Positions 9,332 to 49,829 of a DNA stretch of 64,000 nt are shown one piece after another. The notes beneath the pieces were generated by a model. The model worked only from the letters and a program-made list of their open reading frames with translations, had not been told where the DNA came from and searched no databases. The stretch's first letter is position 1, and each line of letters begins with the position of its first letter. A program made the position numbers and the translations under genes. Source of the DNA: an uncultured Candidatus Saccharibacteria bacterium (GTDB lineage Bacteria; Patescibacteriota; Minisyncoccia; Phycocordibacterales; UBA2100); assembly GCA_964512835.1 (NCBI GenBank), contig CAZELA010000001.1, positions 233,372 through 297,371 of the forward strand. Reading direction: 5' to 3'.

Positions 9332-10543
9332 TTAGATGCTGGGCGAAAGCGCCTTCCAGGCCCCCATGCGTCGACGGCGCAGGTAGTTCGGAAGCTCGTC
9401 CACGGGGACTGCATCCTGGGAATTTGTGGCAACTTCTCGGACCAAGATGGTGTTCTCCATTGCCTCCTTGTAGCCCATGATCAGGATGTACGGTACCGCC
9501 AGCTCCTTGGCTTTAATCATCTGTTCGCCGATCTTGTCGTAGAGCAGGGACTGATGGACCGGTATCTCTGCGCGGCGCAGACTCTCGAGGACCATGAGCG
9601 CCCGGCGTCGCGCCTCGGGACCGAGGTGCGCGAAGTAAATAGACGGGAGTGCACGGTTTTCGCGCTTGAATTTCGTCTTGCCCCGCACTTCGCAGGTGAT
9701 GGAGATCATTGCGGCCGGAATGTGCTTTGCAGCGAAGCGGGTCGCGAGCGGATCATAGCGGCCGCCGAGCGCGAATCCTACACGGCCCCCTGTCTCTTCG
9801 TCGGTCGACGAGATCTCGTAGAGCGAATGTGCCCAGCAGTCACGGGAGCCCAGAACGTGCGGGGAGAGTTCGTAGGGGAGGCCGAACACTTCCAGATATT
9901 CGAGCAAGTCCCAGAATCGGCGGCGCTCATCTTCGGTAAGGTATTCCATCGACTGGGGAGCGCGCGGCGTGGCAGGGTGACCTTTCTCGATCAGCTGCAC
10001 GAGCGTACCGAGCGGATCAGTGGCAGCACGCGGTCGAAGCGTCGGAGAAATGGAGTCGATATGCTTGCGCAGGTAGGATCCGATGTCGCGAACGAAACGG
10101 TTCGACGATTCGTGAGAACCGATGTTGTTGATCGAGAGGTAGCGGTTCTTTACGCCGCTTTCCTCGGCGATGGTGTTCGCTACGACAAGCAGGATTGCTT
10201 CGGCTATCGCCGACTGTGAACCGAGCACGTGCAATTCAAACGAAACCGTCTGGCCGTCACCCTGCCCCTGGGCAGTGCGCCACGCAAGCAGCGTGCCTTG
10301 CTGCGCACGTGCGACCGAAACGGCGCGACGTGCAACGGAAGCAAGTGCGCGCTCATCGCGACGTGCGAAGCTGATATCGGACTCACTCTTTGCCTGCTGC
10401 ACCTTGCGAGCGGCTTCGTCGCGTTCCTTTGTCTGACCTTTCATTTCGTCCAATGGAACGAATCCGTAATATTCTGCGATTTTAATCGCATTCTGCAGGA
10501 ACTCCGCAGTATTCCCGTGGGCTGTGTCTTTCAGTCTGATCAT
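9332..10543 (-). CDS. hisS: histidyl-tRNA synthetase-like class II aaRS (HisS/HisZ family); motif 2 appears degenerate
   Basis: HisRS-specific GGRYD, FELHVLGSQSAIAEAILL and NIGS region, C-terminal anticodon-binding domain; the FRxERPQxGRxRQFxQ arginines are not recognisable. Confidence 0.6.
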   Translation of the reverse strand: MIRLKDTAHGNTAEFLQNAIKIAEYYGFVPLDEMKGQTKERDEAARKVQQAKSESDISFARRDERALASVARRAVSVARAQQGTLLAWRTAQGQGDGQTVSFELHVLGSQSAIAEAILLVVANTIAEESGVKNRYLSINNIGSHESSNRFVRDIGSYLRKHIDSISPTLRPRAATDPLGTLVQLIEKGHPATPRAPQSMEYLTEDERRRFWDLLEYLEVFGLPYELSPHVLGSRDCWAHSLYEISSTDEETGGRVGFALGGRYDPLATRFAAKHIPAAMISITCEVRGKTKFKRENRALPSIYFAHLGPEARRRALMVLESLRRAEIPVHQSLLYDKIGEQMIKAKELAVPYILIMGYKEAMENTILVREVATNSQDAVPVDELPNYLRRRRMGAWKALSPSI

Positions 10544-16725: not shown

Positions 16726-16809
16726 GGCAAATAAATGGCTTAGATACGGGGTTTTTTCAGCAATTCATTACTGGCAGTTATACTTCATTTTTGATAGAAT
16801 TCAGGGTAT

Positions 16810-19320
16810 ATGGCGCGCGCAAAAAAGAACGACACCCCGTCAGATGACGACAAGGGTGCAGGATCAGACATAGCTACCGGTAATGTAATCGCACGATCAA
16901 TCACGCAGGAAATGCGAGAATCGTATCTCGATTACGCGATGACGGTTATTACCGCGCGCGCACTCCCTGATGTGCGAGACGGTTTCAAGCCTGTGCACCG
17001 ACGCATCATGTATGCGATGCAGGAAGCAGGTCTTACTGCGAATGCAAAGACCCGAAAGTCGGCAACGGTCGTCGGAGATGTGCTCGGTAAATATCACCCG
17101 CACGGCGACGCATCGGTGTACGACGCGATGGTGAAAATGGCGCAGGACTTTTCGATGCGCTATCCGCTCGTAATCGGTCAGGGAAACTTCGGATCTATCG
17201 ACGGCGACGGTGCGGCAGCGTACCGCTACACGGAGGCGAAGATGTCTCGCATGGGAGGCGAAATGCTTCGCGATATCGACAAAGAAACTGTCGATTTTCG
17301 CCCAAACTACGACAATACAAAACAGGAACCGACGGTTCTCCCGACCACGATTCCGAACCTCCTCTTGAACGGCACGCTCGGTATTGCCGTCGGTATGGCA
17401 TCGAACATTGCACCGCACAATTTGCGCGAAGTGGGCGAGGCTGCAGTGCATCTCATCGAGAACCCGGAAGCTACGACGGAAGACTTGCTGCAATTCGTAC
17501 AGGGGCCGGACTTCCCGACAGGTTGCATCGCATTTAATAAAAAAGACATTGCGGCCGCATATACGACGGGTCGCGGACCGGTCGTCGTGCGTGGCAATGC
17601 CGAGATCGTTGAAGGTAAAAAGGGTGACTACCAAATCATCATTACCTCGATTCCGTACCGTGTGGTGAAGGCAGACCTCATCACCAAGGTCGCTGATCTT
17701 GTGCAGGAGAAAAAGCTCGAAGGAATCCGAGACATTCGTGATGAATCAACAAAGGATATCCGTATCGTCATTGAGCTCAAGAACAACGCAAACGCGCAGA
17801 CCGTTCTCAATTATCTGTACAAGCACACACAGCTCGAGGATACGTTCCACTACAACATGGTGGCACTCGTCGACGGCGTTCCGCAGACGCTTTCGCTCAA
17901 AGCAATGCTTGAGTACTACGTTGCGCACCGCAAAGAGGTCGTGACACGCCGCACCAAGTACGATCTGAAGATCGCCGAGGCGCGCGAGCACATCCTGCTC
18001 GGTCTGAAGAAAGCACTCGACCACCTCGACGAGATTATCGCGCTCATCCGTAAGTCAAAGACCGTCGATGATGCTCGCTCGGGCCTCATGACGAAGTTCA
18101 AGTTCTCCGAAATCCAGGCACAGGCGATCCTTGACCTCCGACTCCAGAAGCTTGCAGCTCTCGAGCGCCAGAAGATCGAAGACGAATTGAAGGAAGTTCA
18201 GGCGCTTATCGAAGAGCTTCGTGCGCTCCTTAAGAGCGAAAAGAAACTCATGGATCTCATCAAGAAGGAGATTCGCGAGGTTGTCGAGAAATACGGTGAC
18301 GACCGCAGAACAAAGATCGTAAAGGGTGGTGCGACCATTCTCTCGGCAGAAGATCTTGTTGCCGACGACGAGTCGGTGCTGGTGCTCACATCAGGCGGCT
18401 ACATCAAGCGCACTAATCCCAGCGAATATCGACGCCAGAAGCGCGGTGGCGTGGGTGTCGTGGACCTTGATACCAAGGAAGAGGACTTTGTGACGCAGTT
18501 TTTGACCGCGTCGGCACATTCCGACCTCCTGTTCTTCTCGGATCGCGGAAAGGCATACCAGCTCAAAATGTACGAACTGCCGGAGGGTAAGCGTGCTACG
18601 AAGGGCAAATCTATCATGAACTTCCTTTCGCTCGAGCAGGGTGAACAGATCACCTCGATTCTCTCGATGCCGAAAGAAAAGAAGGCCGCTGACGACCTCT
18701 CGCTGCTCATGGCAACGAAAAACGGCACCGTGAAGCGCGTAGCCGCATCCAACTTTAAAGAAGTTCGACGCTCCGGCCTGATCGCCATCGGTTTGGATAA
18801 GGGCGACTCACTCATATCCGCTGAATTCGTGCGAAAGGGCGACGACGCGCTGCTCGTGACCGCAAAGGGTCAGTCGATCCGGTTTGCTGCGGATGACGTG
18901 CGTGAAATGGGCCGACAGGCGGCGGGTGTGCGCGGTATGAAGCTCGGTTCAGCGGACTCCATTGTAGGTGCCGGTGTTATTCCGAAAGGCTCAAAAGATG
19001 CGGAGCTGCTTGTAGTCTCATCGACCGGATACGGCAAAAAGACAAAGCTTTCCGAATACAAGACACAGGGGCGAGGAGGTTCCGGTATTAAAACGATGTC
19101 GATTACCGCGAAGACAAAACAATTGGTCGGCGGATACGTCCTGTTGAAAGACGGTGAACTCGTTGCTATGTCGAAGAAGTCGCAGACCATCCGTACGGGA
19201 CTCGACGAGATTCCGACCCTGTCGCGTGCAACGCAGGGAGTTCGCGTAATGAAAATGCGCGATGGAGACGAAGTCGCATCGTTCGTAGTCTTCGAGGCAG
19301 AGGAAGAGGGTAAGGAATAG
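16810..19320 (+). CDS. gyrA: DNA gyrase subunit A
   Basis: [28 protein letters not shown] active-site region, 836 aa, C-terminal beta-pinwheel repeats. Confidence 0.95.
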
Positions 19321-23202: not shown

Positions 23203-23362
23203 GAAACGGGGACTCGATCACGAATAAAATCCACGCCGTCGCGATCAAGGGGGACTCGGCCAAGCGCTCGCTTCGTCGCCGTCGCGACGAAGCTCCGTTC
23301 GGCCCTGCTCGCGCATCCCCGTCTACTGACGGGGCCCCAGCGCTCGCTTTCTCGTCCCCGCC

Positions 23363-23410
23363 TTTGCTCTACCAAATACAAAAGATCGAGGCATGCCTCG
23401 ATCTTTTGTA
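23363..23410. terminator. long perfect palindrome / bidirectional terminator
   Basis: CAAATACAAAAGATCGAGGCATGCCTCGATCTTTTGTATTTG (19-bp stem). Confidence 0.7.
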
Positions 23411-27263: not shown

Positions 27264-27580
27264 GGCAATGAGAATATCTTGAATAGATTCCCGTGAGGGA
27301 AATCAATACAGGACTGGAGTTTAGGTCGATCCCTGCTTCTCTGGATCAGCTCTGGTTGATACGTAAAAGATACCATGTGAAAAATGATGTGTCAATGAAT
27401 CGTGATTTGTTTGAGGCTGATTCCGAGATGTGGTGCCGGCAAGTATCGAGATGCGACATCGACTACGCTCCATGAGTGGTCAGGGATATTTTCCTCGCCG
27501 CCGCTCGGAAAATTCCACGATTCTGCCTTGCCTGTCGCAAAAGCTTTTGCAACATGGCTCCGGCTCGCACAAAGCGAAAA
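27264..27580 (-). promoter_or_regulatory. probable long cspA 5' leader and promoter region (no convincing ORF)
   Basis: About 300 nt without coding signal between the upstream terminator and the cspA ATG; csp genes classically have long structured leaders. Confidence 0.35.
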
Positions 27581-27584
27581 AACC

Positions 27585-27612
27585 TGGCGCAGGCCAGGTT
27601 TGTTTCGTCTTT
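27585..27612 (-). terminator. terminator of the low-GC hypothetical gene
   Basis: AACCTGGCGCAGGCCAGGTT hairpin with T-run on the minus strand. Confidence 0.6.
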
Positions 27613-27643
27613 GTGCGCCCAATGGGACGTTATCGGAACGGAA

Positions 27644-28168
27644 CTATTGGCAGGAGTCACGCAGATCGCCAGTTAGCCATGTTGCCGATTTTTTTGCCTC
27701 ATCAATATTTCTCAGCTGTAAATTATTTGGAACACCTGCTTGATGGCGCTTTTCTTCGAACTGAGTTTCAGTAAATGCCTGCATCGTTTGACCCGAGTGC
27801 GGGTCAATAACCCACCAGTAGGTTATCGATTCATCGGGGATGCAATTTGAACAATCCTCCATGCGTGGGTGCGGTTTCTCCAGCGGGTGTGTCTTCGCAA
27901 GAACATAGTCGTCATCCCACGCAATTTCAAATATGGATTCGGGAATGAACCCCCCAGCATCACCAATATCCGTGCAATTTACATATACAGCATATGCACT
28001 GCTCCTGTTCAGTTTGCAATGTGAATTTAACTGATATTCATAGTCTGCTAAACCGGGTCCAAAACCACATTTAAGAATAGTGCTGTAAAAAGAGAAACAA
28101 ATAAAAATCCACACGATGCTGGCGCCAATCCAAAAATACTTCGGATTCCGAACGATGGCTTTCAACAT
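27644..28168 (-). CDS. hypothetical membrane-anchored protein, low GC
   Basis: 174 aa, N-terminal TM, Cys-containing; about 45% GC versus 55-58% in flanks. Confidence 0.45.
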   Translation of the reverse strand: MLKAIVRNPKYFWIGASIVWIFICFSFYSTILKCGFGPGLADYEYQLNSHCKLNRSSAYAVYVNCTDIGDAGGFIPESIFEIAWDDDYVLAKTHPLEKPHPRMEDCSNCIPDESITYWWVIDPHSGQTMQAFTETQFEEKRHQAGVPNNLQLRNIDEAKKSATWLTGDLRDSCQ

Positions 28169-28196
28169 AGGAAAACTATGTCACGAAACTGAAAAC

Positions 28197-28390
28197 TTGT
28201 CTGTGCGCCCACTAGGATCCTCCCAAGCGCTCGTATTTTGCCGTCGCAAAATACTCCGCTCGGGCCTGGTTTTGCTATCCCATCTGCTGATGGGCCCCAC
28301 GCAAAACCTTTCGAATCCTGACGCTCGCTTCGCTAGCTGTGGGCGCACTTGTAAACAGAAAACGGCCCTAAGGCCGTTTTCTGATTCAAG
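28197..28390 (-). repeat. tRNA-Lys trailer element
   Basis: Terminator AAAACGGCCCTAAGGCCGTTTTC (28359-28382), inverted acceptor copy (28338-28349), hairpin GTATTTTGC-GACG-GCAAAATAC (28233-28254), direct copy GTGCGCCCAC.AGGAT (28203-28217). Confidence 0.6.
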
Positions 28391-28463
28391 TGCGCCCACC
28401 AGGATTCGAACCTGGGACCGTTCGCTTAAGAGGCGACTGCTCTACCAGCTGAGCTATGAGCGC
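28391..28463 (-). tRNA. tRNA-Lys (anticodon CTT), CCA not encoded
   Basis: Manual fold: acceptor GCGCTCA/TGGGCGC, anticodon loop CTCTTAA, T-arm CCAGGTTCGAATCCTGG. Confidence 0.8.
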
Positions 28464-30980: not shown

Positions 30981-31140
30981 TCGATAGTCCTCCCGTTTAC
31001 GTTGCCTGTATTGCCGCTAAAAGGCGGCCTGCCATGAGACTACCAACGACCCCTACGCAGTCAACGATACGGGAGCGATTTGTACTATTACGAATACAGA
31101 TCGGTCTCAGGTCAAACAAATAAGAAGCTATACTTTAGCA

Positions 31141-32004
31141 ATGCTCCCGACTACAGGGCTCGTATTCGCGCTTCTGACCGCCGTCTCTGCCTCGGTCTAT
31201 GCGCTTACTGCTCGTTATGTAATACGGGGTGATTCCAACCCGCTCGCGTTTTCAATCTTGTTTACCGTGTGCTCCGCGATCATCTCCTGCGGTCTCTTTT
31301 TTGTGGTGCCGCCGGACTTTTCTTCAGCATCCTGGTCGTATGTGCCGCTTTTAATCTGTGCGGGTATTTTGTACGGCTTGTACGACGCTACACAGTTCTC
31401 GGCTCGCAAACACCTTGAGGCATCAAGTTTTTCTACAATTCTTCAGACTGCGCCTGTAATTGCGTTTATCCTCTCCGTCCTTATTTTGAAGGAGGGGATT
31501 ACCGCCTTGAAACTTGCCGCGGTCGCTCTCATCATCACGGGCAATATCGTTGCGATATACAAATCCCACGGTCGCATAACGCGAACAGGTCTCGCGTTCG
31601 GCCTTACTGTCGCGGCGGTCTCGGGTGTAGCGTACGTCGTCGATAAAGTAACGTTCCCGTACATCCCGTTTCTGCTGTACTCCATCACGGTATATGCTAT
31701 TCCCGCTATAATCGTGTCTTCAATCTATGCGGCAAAAGGTGGCACGGTTGCCTCGGTGCGCGCAGAGTGGCGACAGTTCTCATGGAGGATTCCCGTGATT
31801 TCGCTGCTCGGAGTTACGACATATTACTTTTTGTATCGTGCTTTTCAGGTTGCGGACGCTTCGGTGGTCGTGCCGATTACATCATCATCAACGATACTCA
31901 CGGTCCTTGGTGGCATTTTTCTGCTCGGCGAAAAGGGAAACATGCTGAGGAAAATCATTGGCGCAGTGTTTGTTTTGCTTGGCGTATTGCTGCTCCGGCT
32001 CTAA
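31141..32004 (+). CDS. EamA/DMT family transporter
   Basis: 10 predicted TM helices in two 5-TM halves. Confidence 0.65.
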   Translation: MLPTTGLVFALLTAVSASVYALTARYVIRGDSNPLAFSILFTVCSAIISCGLFFVVPPDFSSASWSYVPLLICAGILYGLYDATQFSARKHLEASSFSTILQTAPVIAFILSVLILKEGITALKLAAVALIITGNIVAIYKSHGRITRTGLAFGLTVAAVSGVAYVVDKVTFPYIPFLLYSITVYAIPAIIVSSIYAAKGGTVASVRAEWRQFSWRIPVISLLGVTTYYFLYRAFQVADASVVVPITSSSTILTVLGGIFLLGEKGNMLRKIIGAVFVLLGVLLLRL

Positions 32005-32009
32005 GTGAC

Positions 32010-32190
32010 GCCACGAGGGGTGTGCACCCGCCCATAACGCCCTTTGTTTAACTGGGCAGACCGTCGCGTGCGACGAGCTGGAATTACGAACACTACAATT
32101 GAGGCCACAGCGGGAGTTGCACCCGCCCATAACGGTTTTGCAGACCGTCGCGTTGCTACTTCGCCATATGGCCAGCGAAAGCTAACGCCG
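32010..32190 (+). repeat. two diverged tandem copies of an about 90-bp unit upstream of tRNA-Leu(TAA)
   Basis: GCACCCGCCCATAACG at 32027 and 32121; GCAGACCGTCGCGT at 32064 and 32143. Confidence 0.6.
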
Positions 32191-32229
32191 TGTACTGTAA
32201 CATAAATCAGCGCTACTATGGTGCGCATT

Positions 32230-32314
32230 GCCGGGGTGATGGAATGGTAGACATAGGGGACTTAAAATCCCCAGGCCGTAAAAGGCCGTGTGGGTTCGAG
32301 TCCCACTCCCGGCA
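32230..32314 (+). tRNA. tRNA-Leu (anticodon TAA), type II, CCA not encoded
   Basis: Manual fold: acceptor GCCGGGG/TCCCGGC, anticodon loop CTTAAAA, long variable arm, T-arm GGTTCGAGTCC. Confidence 0.8.
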
Positions 32315-32345
32315 CAAATGATATAGTCCGAAGAGGAGGTGACAC

Positions 32346-40836: not shown

Positions 40837-40953
40837 TGCAATCTCCCTTGGTTTTTGCTGCGCGGGATAATGCAACACTTTTGCGTATTTATCAAGTATT
40901 CCTGATGCCCGCTCTAGCAGATAGGCCCTGATTGGTGCATACTAGTGCCACAA

Positions 40954-41036
40954 GCGTCGATGGCGGAGTGGTCAATCGCACTTGGCTGTAAACCAAGCGA
41001 CTTCGGTCTGCGCAGGTTCGAATCCTGCTCGGCGCA
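40954..41036 (+). tRNA. tRNA-Tyr (anticodon GTA), type II, CCA not encoded
   Basis: Manual fold: acceptor GCGTCGA/TCGGCGC, anticodon loop CTGTAAA, long variable arm, T-arm GCAGGTTCGAATCCTGC. Confidence 0.8.
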
Positions 41037-41230
41037 CAAACGCAAAAAGAACCCAATTGGGTTCTTTTTGCGTTTGTGCAGCACGAGAGCAGAGTGCTGA
41101 GCACTCTGCGGCAGGATTCGAACGCCGGAGCGATGTGAGCCCAGTAGGGCGAACCGCGAGGCGGTGCCCAGACAAACTTTTGCGACGGCAAAAGTTTAGT
41201 CGAGGGAGAATCCTGCTCGGCGCACAAAGT
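41037..41230 (+). repeat. tRNA-Tyr trailer element
   Basis: Terminator (41045-41070), palindrome GCAGAGTGCTGAGCACTCTGC, inverted T-arm-like CAGGATTCGAAC, hairpin AAACTTTTGC-GACG-GCAAAAGTTT (41174-41197), direct copy GAATCCTGCTCGGCGCACAAA (41208-41228 versus 41020-41040). Confidence 0.65.
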
Positions 41231-42652: not shown

Positions 42653-42820
42653 ATGATCAAAAAAGACGCGCAAGCGTCTTTTTTGCCAAACATTGCGAGG
42701 CGATGAGGGAATCGAAAGGCGGAGGCGGGGCACCCGCGTACCCGCGGGTCGCCGAGCCAGGGCAGTGACCACTTGCCCGAAGGGCTTAGTGAGTTACGCC
42801 GCTTCCCTCATCGCCCGCAA
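42653..42820 (+). repeat. tRNA-Trp trailer element
   Basis: Terminator AAAAAAGACGCGCAAGCGTCTTTTTT, inverted copy GGCGATGAGGGAATCGAA (42699-42716), direct copy TTCCCTCATCGCCCGCAA (42803-42820); the two copies can pair as a 13-bp stem. Confidence 0.6.
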
Positions 42821-46330: not shown

Positions 46331-46507
46331 CACAAAATCAAAAAGCAGGGCATGTCCCTGCTTTTTGATTTTGTGGCACGGAAGTGGGACTCGAAAGCGA
46401 GTCCTGGGCCCCCGCGAGCACGTGGGGATGGACGAGCAGGGCAGAGAAACTTTTTAACGCGACGGCGTTAAAAAGTGTTCTTGGCCGAGTCCCACTTCCG
46501 GCTTTTT
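46331..46507 (+). repeat. tRNA-Leu(CAA) trailer element
   Basis: Terminator palindrome (46335-46371), inverted copy GCACGGAAGTGGGACTCGAA (46376-46395), hairpin ACTTTTTAACGC-GACG-GCGTTAAAAAGT (46449-46476), direct copy GAGTCCCACTTCCGGC plus TTTTT (46487-46507). Confidence 0.65.
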
Positions 46508-49622: not shown

Positions 49623-49733
49623 TTACTTCTTTTTCTTCGCCGTCTTCTTGTCGGATGATGCCCCCTCCAGCTTATGCGGGTTGTGCATGGGACATGTTTT
49701 TTGACTACAGCGCTCCGGAATCGTTTTTGGTCA
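49623..49733 (-). pseudogene. displaced duplicate of the topA 3'-terminal coding segment
   Basis: Minus-strand translation between stops: PKTIPERCSQKTCPMHNPHKLEGASSDKKTAKKKK versus the topA C-terminus ...TKTIPERCSQKTCPMHNPHKLEGVAKKKK; 29-bp identical core CCCTCCAGCTTATGCGGGTTGTGCATGGG. Confidence 0.7.
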
Positions 49734-49829
49734 CACGTTCGTGTCGTCCCGTCGGACGCCACGACGTGCGACCCCGGCTCAGGATCGCACGCTGCTGCGT
49801 GCGATATCCTTCCGCCTCACAAAAACGAA

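Follow-up and report, generated by a model that had tools for sequence, protein, structure and literature searches.

A 64-kb stretch of the genome of an uncultured Candidatus Saccharibacteria bacterium, called the window below, carries seven tRNA genes. Downstream of one of them, a tRNA-Lys(CTT) gene on the minus strand, inverted and direct copies of the tRNA 3' end alternate with hairpins and are followed by a gene of low GC content. An initial annotation had listed four such features in the tRNA trailer, and both these and the open reading frame (ORF) beyond them lie where it had placed them, in a concentration far beyond chance: the window has three exact occurrences of the 10-mer GTGCGCCCAC, all inside 197 bp, with a further copy matching at 9 of 10 positions found 590 bp further, at 27613. 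All four features belong to a single folded unit, 28203-28348, that is found again behind other tRNAs. We describe this unit here as a recurrent, covarying and strand-specific structured element tied to tRNA 3' ends. The parts of the locus, as read along the tRNA strand, are the following:

28390-28463, minus: tRNA-Lys(CTT) (ARAGORN; 67.6 bits with the Rfam tRNA model)
28390-28407, minus: A1, the 3' segment of tRNA-Lys from G57 in the T-loop to C74, within the tRNA gene
28349-28389, minus: H1, hairpin with U-run (stem-loop 28359-28382), from sequence and fold
28339-28348, minus: acceptor part of the inverted copy A', GTGCGCCCAC, 5' strand of stem P1a
28321-28338, minus: X, an 18-nt insert splitting A'; a hairpin stands at the same place in the Tyr copy and in several metagenome copies
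28310-28320, minus: T-arm part of A', CAGGATTCGAA, reverse complement of T-loop/T-stem positions 54-64, 5' strand of P1b
28268-28308, minus: P2, stem GGUUUUGC/GCAAAACC around the hairpin CCCAUC-AGCA-GAUGGG (fold, covariation)
28222-28264, minus: P3, basal stem and hairpin UAUUUUGC-GACG-GCAAAAUA (fold, covariation)
28203-28220, minus: A2, direct copy of tRNA G57-C74, GGATCCTAGTGGGCGCAC, 16/18 identical, 3' strand of P1
27644-28168, minus: cargo ORF of 174 aa, DUF3997 (Pfam PF13162, E = 4e-9), with an N-terminal hydrophobic segment
27613-27628, minus: A3, outer degenerate copy of the tRNA end, GTCCCATTGGGCGCAC, 12/16 identical to A1 with the last 9 identical
27580-27601, both strands: H0, bidirectional terminator, flagged by terminator scan; directly follows tRNA-Lys in the sister genome L004
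27474-27566, minus: E0, decayed older copy of the element (covariance model R1, see below, 30.1 bits, E = 3.6e-6), with A' truncated and A2 degenerate

A1, H1 and A' form a near-palindrome of about 60 nt that has the tRNA 3' end on one side, the inverted copy on the other and the hairpin at 28359-28382 as its tip. This stem-loop reads AAAACGGCC-CTAA-GGCCGTTTT on the plus strand and AAAACGGCC-UUAG-GGCCGUUUU on the tRNA strand; its stem of 9 bp is followed by TTTTCTGTTT, and a consensus terminator scan flags H0, not H1. On the tRNA strand GUGCGCCCAC, at 28348-28339, is the exact reverse complement of the last 10 nt of tRNA-Lys; on the plus strand the inverted copy at 28338-28349, TGTGGGCGCACT, is the reverse complement of AGTGCGCCCACA. 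Within P3, the hairpin at 28233-28254 reads GTATTTTGC-CGTC-GCAAAATAC on the plus strand, its loop being GACG on the tRNA strand. A2 reads GTGCGCCCACTAGGATCC at 28203-28220 and GGAUCCUAGUGGGCGCAC at 28220-28203, on the tRNA strand, and the DUF3997 ORF starts 34 nt past it. Model R1 matches the Lys element at 28215-28318 with 85.1 bits.

A family of elements within the window

The surroundings of the seven window tRNAs were searched for the terminal 12 nt of each. Five tRNAs (Leu-TAG, Lys, Tyr, Trp and Leu-CAA) carry an element whose arms match their own sequence, which bears out the suggestion of the initial annotation that the Lys architecture is shared with other tRNAs. The element is about 150 nt long, with the order tRNA, hairpin H, A', about 100 nt of related sequence and A2 on the tRNA strand. 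A' repeats, in inverted orientation, the host tRNA sequence between the 3' end and T-loop position 54; in some copies the hairpin X interrupts it, and in window copies it always ends in ...TCGAA, the complement of the T-loop; a short junction, GAAAG, separates it from the hairpin domains P2 and P3. A2, 160-190 nt downstream, is a direct copy of the 3' end of the same tRNA from G57 onward. The additional copies are as follows:

23241-23370, minus: behind tRNA-Leu(TAG); R1, 100.4 bits
41076-41225, plus: behind tRNA-Tyr; R1; a second terminator follows
42695-42818, plus: behind tRNA-Trp; R1 and arm search
46375-46502, plus: behind tRNA-Leu(CAA); R1 and arm search
49723-49826, minus: core-only copy past the topA stop codon and terminator; R1, 41.9 bits; no tRNA and no tRNA-derived arms

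Model R1 thus adds two copies to the five, E0 (27474-27566) and the topA-linked core (49723-49826), and its E-values for window copies reach 1e-21 to 6e-26. At the Tyr locus the terminator is doubled, with H1 before the element and H0 after it.

The arms differ according to the host tRNA (GGGACTCGAA in Leu, GGGAATCGAA in Trp, CAGGATTCGAA in both Lys and Tyr) and are copied from the local tRNA gene, not from the mature tRNA: A2 ends in C74 followed by A, like the gene, not in CCA, and A' is palindromic with the gene's own flank. A retroviral-style primer-binding site, or any copying from mature tRNA, was rejected on the same match of A' and A2 to gene and flank. The palindromic T-loop sequence TTCGAA is where both arms begin, and the core termini, GGATTCG...CGAATCC, are that sequence inverted. 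None of the seven tRNA genes of the window encodes CCA; the discriminator is followed by C and then by A in six of them, by T in tRNA-Lys. The element-free tRNA-Trp of one related genome, L133, does encode CCA.

MiaA homologues gave access to syntenic loci in three Saccharibacteria that are more distantly related (L132, L133/L134 and L135). L132 and L133 also have copies of the topA-linked core at this position, and compensatory differences occur among them. In the window the core is followed by an ORF of 21 codons, MHNPHKLEGASSDKKTAKKKK, at 49623-49688 (minus), whose start, MHNPHKLEG, is conserved between topA and relA in the same two genomes.

A conserved three-way junction on the tRNA-sense strand

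Each stretch from A' to A2 folds as a three-way junction made of P1 (A' paired with A2), P2, a stem carrying a hairpin with an AGYA loop, and P3, a long hairpin usually topped by GC-GACG-GC. The structure was written from single-sequence folds and tested on a sequence-only MAFFT alignment of 19 copies, from which the covariance model R1 of the core was then built. In this alignment paired cells make up 82.9%, compared with 62.9% in shuffles, and double-sided changes occur in 27 of the 35 pairs. The covariation score is 0.461 against 0.167 in shuffled alignments; none of 500 shuffles scores as high and slid controls stay at or below 0.176. The 37 matches of R1 in 100 metagenome loci give similar covariation statistics, on an alignment that is fitted to the model and hence leans towards the structure.

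Several observations bear on the strand. The tRNA-sense strand is more stable than the antisense strand by 4-12 kcal/mol in all five window copies, and it folds better in 53 of 71 distinct metagenome cores (p = 2e-7, among the matches listed). G-U pairs occur at fixed positions: one P3 pair is U-G in 20 of 37 sequences, and others are G-U in 10-13 of them. Since such pairs become A-C mismatches on the other strand, their frequency favours the tRNA-sense strand. The same energies and G-U counts disfavour an RNA gene on the antisense strand that would end at the bidirectional hairpin.

Together with the covarying stems, bases of the junction are conserved (GAAAG, CGGAG..CGAG, GG and GUGACC, the first being partly imposed by the scan pattern described below), so that a conserved multi-stem junction, covariation and conserved junction bases are combined as in riboswitch-like RNAs. 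The genes downstream of the elements are heterogeneous: DUF3997, parB, a terminator and a small ORF. A kink-turn in P2 was rejected by eye, its strands being in the wrong order. A self-cleaving ribozyme was rejected too: the hammerhead-like CUGAUG belongs to the P2 hairpin and no Rfam ribozyme matches. Conservation of the fold is also visible between the Tyr elements of the window and of L133, which are 93% identical over 150 nt, and of the ten differences four make up two compensatory pairs; identity in the flanking hairpins is only 71% for H1 and 59% for H0. Taken together, the folded tRNA-sense strand, most likely as RNA, is under selection.

The segment from tRNA-Lys through A2 was also folded as a single RNA, as read-through transcription would produce it. 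The predicted energy is -143.8 kcal/mol (z = -11.5), compared with -127.9 for Fold I, in which a normal tRNA precedes the three-way junction closed by A' and A2. In the alternative, Fold II, a single long hairpin is made by A1, H1 and A', and the distal A2 pairs with the 5' acceptor and T-stem strands of the tRNA. Fold II is the predicted minimum in four of the five window copies (Lys, Tyr, Trp and Leu-CAA), where it beats the fold with tRNA and separate trailer by 12-18 kcal/mol; at Leu-TAG, where the arms have decayed, it is not the minimum. This alternative fold is a thermodynamic prediction; folding during transcription and termination at H may keep it from forming.

A polymorphic segment at tRNA-Lys

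Apart from Joint Genome Institute (JGI) contigs identical to the window, the closest sequence is a contig from a sister metagenome-assembled genome (MAG), L004, whose Prs protein is 97% identical and whose DNA is about 89% identical to the window. In L004 the 3' end of tRNA-Lys is directly followed by AAAGACGAAACAAACCTGGCCTGCGCCAGGTTTTTTCGC, which corresponds to the minus strand of the window from 27612 to 27567; the junction matches the window at 55 of 55 positions, including the last nine bases of the tRNA. Since L004 joins tRNA-Lys straight to window 27612, window positions 27622-28389 (768 bp) constitute an indel, made up of H1, the element, the 34-nt spacer, the DUF3997 ORF and 21 further bases. 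Its borders are the tRNA end and A3, and thus coincide with direct repeats of the tRNA 3' segment. The only gene in the 768-bp insert is the DUF3997 ORF; it includes no integrase gene.

The initial annotation had the idea of foreign DNA at the tRNA tail, with the low-GC gene immediately beyond the direct copy, and had listed the copies now named A' and A2. Composition and the absence of both trailer and gene at tRNA-Lys of L004 speak for the acquisition; the borders had to be corrected, as the gene lies outside that pair of copies and the true outer edge is A3 (27613-27628). The ORF is the lowest-GC stretch of 525 nt in the window, with a GC content of 0.44 and a third-position GC content (GC3) also of 0.44, compared with 0.58-0.72 in twelve other window genes. 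It is a compositionally foreign gene inside a polymorphic segment, and it looks like foreign DNA at the tRNA tail. Five homologues of the 174-aa protein were found, one of them not beside a tRNA; the orthologous locus does not carry the gene without tRNA-end copies, nor is the gene a conserved core gene. The protein matches a Pfam domain of unknown function only, with no match among PHROG, PADLOC or PDB entries. No promoter-like site was found ahead of the ORF, the nearest being that of the tRNA itself (28500-28473), so that expression by read-through from the tRNA is plausible. We infer that the element copy at tRNA-Lys came together with the foreign DUF3997 gene.

A gene of 76 aa called on the JGI contigs (27392-27622, minus) overlies H0 and E0 and is probably spurious. 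The L004 contig (end 12637) stops 46 nt past tRNA-Lys. Like a further contig, L003, and a JGI contig that ends near window 41306, it is one of several MAG contigs whose ends lie no more than about 100 nt from a tRNA or element; such ends suggest that the repeats break assemblies.

Turnover among related genomes

At orthologous tRNA genes the element is filled in some genomes and empty in others:

tRNA-Leu(CAA): window, filled; L004, not covered; L132, filled; L133, filled; L135, filled
tRNA-Tyr: window, filled; L004, empty; L132, filled; L133, filled; L135, empty
tRNA-Trp: window, filled; L004, not covered; L132, filled; L133, empty; L135, filled

The family is marked by indel polymorphism, by accretion of older copies and by exchange of core blocks. 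Accretion is apparent in the degenerate outer copies A3 and E0 of the Lys locus, in a tandem remnant after A2 in L132, and in tandem copies in L041, L081, L100, L111 and L129. As for exchange, the core subtype at tRNA-Tyr in L132 differs from that in the window and L133; its P3 shares an identical block of 53 nt with the Leu-CAA element of L135, and its P2 resembles the Leu-CAA element of L132 itself. In L135 the T-stem of tRNA-Leu now reads CCCTC; A2 shares this change, whereas A' has kept its resemblance to the ancestral type, CCCAC.

Orientation of tRNA genes also differs between these genomes. The Tyr gene and the Cys/Leu-TAA pair are flipped in L004, as are Leu-CAA and Tyr in L135 (inverted sites at 9362-9444 and 16774-16857). 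The segment comprising tRNA-Tyr and its hairpin (window 40937-41083; L004 186-330) is inverted in L004 relative to the acyltransferase gene, and the Cys/Leu-TAA pair (window 32090-32317) is inverted at L004 9544-9860. A degenerate copy of about 60 nt of tRNA-Cys, from D-arm to 3' end, lies just downstream of tRNA-Cys (32005-32100, minus), and L004 is without the EamA gene (window about 31102-32089, GC3 0.58). The Cys/EamA locus looks like a second tRNA-linked indel, of different architecture.

Distribution in metagenomes and databases

Metagenomes were scanned with a pattern consisting of the T-loop followed, 60-90 nt on, by the inverted copy and AG (GGTTCGAATCC N{60,90} GGATTCGAAAG). The scan yielded at least 120 stretches, of which 121 matches are listed, with the junction GGATTCGAAAG imposed by the pattern. 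Among these, 64 of 121 have a copy of at least 13 nt, mostly exact, of the tRNA T-stem and acceptor 3' strand within 220 nt, and nearly all the others have a shorter copy starting at GAATCC. In most listed copies P1 amounts to GGAUUC/GAAUCC (6 bp). Several core types can be distinguished among the matches listed. For the L type, like that of the window, the tRNA gene in front encodes no CCA in 30 of 37 cases, which is the situation in bacteria of the candidate phyla radiation (CPR); the S1 and S2 types occur only behind CCA-encoding tRNAs, some of them from gut metagenomes. S1 and S2 may be homologous to L, judging by their common architecture.

At unbiased loci about three quarters of the copies lie at tRNA 3' ends, and some metagenome copies stand inside tRNA clusters devoid of any terminator. 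In L034, L048, L029 and L076 the direct repeat extends beyond the tRNA end into the flank. A hairpin of the motif UGCC-(G/A)GUG-GGCA is found both in the P2 tip of S1 cores and in the X insert of S2 copies (L034, L048 and L054). In P3, four S1 copies (L023, L094, L101 and L124) have an AT-rich insert in common, about 38 nt long. In L015 (1137-1243, minus) a second tRNA-Ser-linked copy follows a tRNA 3'-end remnant with no intact tRNA; it looks like a segmental duplicate of tRNA tail and element.

Database searches returned little. In the window and 20 related loci, Rfam 15 gives only tRNAs at the gathering threshold, and for two copies searched at E-values up to 10 the best sub-threshold matches fall far below it. 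The 2.9 million viral contigs of IMG/VR contain two matches to the pattern, of which the one inspected (L137) is a chance match inside an ORF; plasmids and phages give no blastn match to the element, and on these two results a phage or plasmid origin was rejected. No autonomous version with a gene between the arms was seen among the 121 matches listed. The element is not described in Rfam 15 or in the full-text literature searched, which is a statement about these sources and not a proof of novelty; the family is apparently both widespread and undescribed.

Discussion

On balance we lean towards a small, non-coding, structured insertion element that homes to tRNA tails and lodges directly 3' of tRNA genes. 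We infer that it is, or recently was, mobile, and that homing occurs via the T-loop sequence. The ancestral state of the Lys locus would have been tRNA-H0-E0, as in the sister genome; the window lineage would then have gained H1, an element copy E1 and the foreign DUF3997 gene between the tRNA end and H0, leaving a third tRNA-end copy, A3, at the far junction, while the displaced older element E0 decayed. As to mechanism, the core termini (GGATTCG...CGAATCC) match the near-universal palindromic T-loop sequence, and might either anneal at the T-loop of the tRNA gene or be recognized there by a trans-acting recombinase or other enzyme. Both arms would then be extended on the tRNA gene, producing an inverted and a direct copy of variable length. 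Such a fill-in would account for the T-loop start of the arms, for their variable length and for their match to the local gene instead of the mature tRNA. Newly arriving copies would enter beside the tRNA and push older ones outward.

A number of results weigh against this reading. The Lys indel could equally be an insertion in the window or a deletion in L004, as the neighbouring 305-aa protein has a single homologue, that of L004 itself. Between genomes that share 74% identity in their MiaA proteins and 59-71% in the hairpins flanking the Tyr element, this element reaches 93% identity, which points to purifying selection or to a recent transfer. The topA copy has no tRNA arms and keeps its position across three genomes; it resembles a functional RNA that has been retained, not a homing element. 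Among the matches listed, a long A' and a long A2 occur together in 5 of 120, compared with about 12 expected; as they are rarely combined, a long P1 stem is not a general feature. Empty palindromic A'/A2 precursor sites such as GGATTCGAATCC were not found in 1.07 Mb. The 64-kb window encodes no integrase, transposase or reverse transcriptase: its large ORFs with a Pfam match are all housekeeping genes, including that of the competence protein DprA, and several others matched nothing. Finally, no recombinase- or transposase-like gene lies beside ten long metagenome copies, as judged from ORF lists without family search.

The main rival, which we hold to be possible but clearly less probable, is a fixed cis-acting RNA that serves the host, is co-transcribed with the tRNA by read-through of H, and is not mobile. 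Its arms would switch the transcript between Fold I and Fold II (the A1-H-A' hairpin, with the tRNA body closed by A2), in the service of processing, quality control or regulation of the tRNA or downstream gene, and gain and loss would be ordinary gene turnover. The strong covariation and the G-U pairs on the tRNA-sense strand agree with such a role, as do the predominance of Fold II among the predicted minima, the conservation of the Tyr element and topA copies across deep divergence, and the A2 of L135, which follows the changed tRNA while A' does not. The elements also stand in sense orientation upstream of genes, with no separate DUF3997 promoter found, and some copies lie in terminator-free tRNA clusters. 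A fixed function is harder to reconcile with presence and absence at orthologous tRNAs of close relatives, the decay of displaced copies, the replacement of a core subtype at the same tRNA and the identical blocks at different tRNAs in different genomes. Arm lengths, moreover, are highly variable, many copies having only 6 bp of P1, and the perfect 40-bp hairpin A1-H-A' would destroy the tRNA in any read-through transcript.

A mobile element and a fixed host RNA are compatible readings, not exclusive ones. We also consider it possible, though not likely, that the element is a self-propagating 'T-loop pseudo-intron', which would make it a genetic entity of a new kind. Its structured RNA, or else the corresponding single strand of DNA, would home to tRNA genes through the universal T-loop sequence and have both arms templated on its target; the read-through RNA would then re-close the tRNA body with the spare 3' half A2, the original 3' half being held in the long hairpin. 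If so, the locus could have two alternative tRNA precursors, and promoterless genes could be ferried into tRNA transcription units.

A folded single-strand recombination site, like integron attC or CTX-phage attP, with the DUF3997 gene as its cassette, appears improbable. Pairing of A' with A2 on the tRNA-sense DNA strand would rebuild a duplex copy of the tRNA-gene target at which a tyrosine recombinase encoded elsewhere exchanges one strand. The succession of site copy, short content, inverse copy, structured centre and site copy fits this proposal, integrated attC cassettes and the CTX prophage having the same order of parts; so do direct copies that start in the T-loop, the classical crossover position of integrases, the promoterless cargo gene after the site, and a structure that is conserved while the sequence varies. 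Yet no integron integrase or other recombinase is present in the 64-kb window, the attC core consensus is absent, and the folded stem is without positions 49-56, so that there is no full two-arm core site. In L135, A1 and A2 both carry the tRNA variant of the recipient, which a single donor-recipient crossover cannot yield, and tandem G-U pairs suit RNA better than DNA.

Less probable still are functionless, decayed scars (attL/attR remnants) of classical integrase islands or prophages. Direct repeats of the tRNA 3' end do bound an indel with a foreign gene, and tRNA genes are well-known integration hot spots, but a core of about 100 nt is conserved with compensatory changes across at least five tRNA species, several genomes and dozens of metagenome contigs, the inverted copy is always present, no integrase remnant is seen and the pattern is essentially absent from viral contigs. 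The four features at tRNA-Lys are no ordinary integration scar; they belong to a conserved, covarying structured family, which occurs also without cargo, without integrase and, once, without a tRNA. Chance resemblance next to an ordinary terminator, which could appeal to the lack of window-wide enrichment of the 10-mer at one mismatch or less (10 observed, 6.6 expected), is refuted by three exact copies in 197 bp, the same layout at five tRNAs and R1 E-values of 1e-21 to 6e-26.

If the element is real, a selected, folded structure that copies the tRNA tail stands behind the majority of tRNA genes in Saccharibacteria and behind many of those in other uncultivated bacteria. It would offer a handle on the gain of foreign genes at tRNA genes in tiny CPR genomes without integrase, and may explain both the flips in tRNA orientation between relatives and the breaks of MAG contigs at tRNAs. 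Annotation is affected as well, gene callers placing spurious ORFs over elements, such as the 76-aa call over E0.

Relation to known systems

In its repeats and cargo the element resembles the att-site duplications of islands and prophages that enter tRNA genes by means of tyrosine integrases. As in these, a direct repeat of the tRNA 3' end, starting from the T-loop, bounds inserted DNA, the insertion is polymorphic with an empty site in a relative (L004), a foreign gene is carried and older copies lie further out. The element differs in having no integrase, an insert that is usually about 150-190 bp long and non-coding, a covarying core common to different tRNA species and an inverted target copy that is always present.

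With integron attC and CTX attP sites it shares inverse and direct site copies on either side of a structured, variable centre, which they would close by pairing (A' with A2 around P2 and P3, in most metagenome copies by GGAUUC/GAAUCC only), a structure kept more than sequence, strand asymmetry and an adjacent promoterless gene. However, it has no R''/R' consensus, its ends reading ...GGATTCGAA and GAATCC... where attC requires RYYYAAC ... GTTRRRY; no IntI or Xer partner was identified, the 64-kb window containing neither an intI integrase nor an attI site; the site differs with each tRNA; and the stem is often 6 bp long, with a G-U pattern that suggests RNA.

MITEs (miniature inverted-repeat transposable elements), REPINs and small palindromic repeats are likewise small, non-coding, multi-copy and hairpin-forming, possess no gene of their own and are intergenic, often beside terminators. 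In the present element, by contrast, the terminal repeats are not constant and copy the adjacent tRNA, targeting is strict, and a three-way junction takes the place of a single palindrome. As for a target-site duplication of the MITE kind, (C)GAA is found on both sides of the core, and the palindromic T-loop TTCGAA would give the same result.

Duplication-triplication/inverted-duplication (DUP-TRP/INV-DUP) rearrangements and template switching at quasi-palindromes have the same direct-inverted-direct order, here with junctions at two palindromes, the terminator loop and the TTCGAA of the T-loop; the element differs from them in the conserved foreign core at the second junction and in the recurrence at many tRNAs and lineages. 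The predicted read-through fold, with the tRNA body closed by A2 and about 190 nt between positions 56 and 57, recalls the non-canonical T-loop tRNA introns of Crenarchaeota and the split or permuted tRNAs. Bacteria are not known to have the archaeal splicing endonuclease, and a bulge-helix-bulge motif was not seen, though no search was aimed at it. Unlike a tRNA gene interrupted by such an intron, the gene here is already complete, through A1, without splicing.

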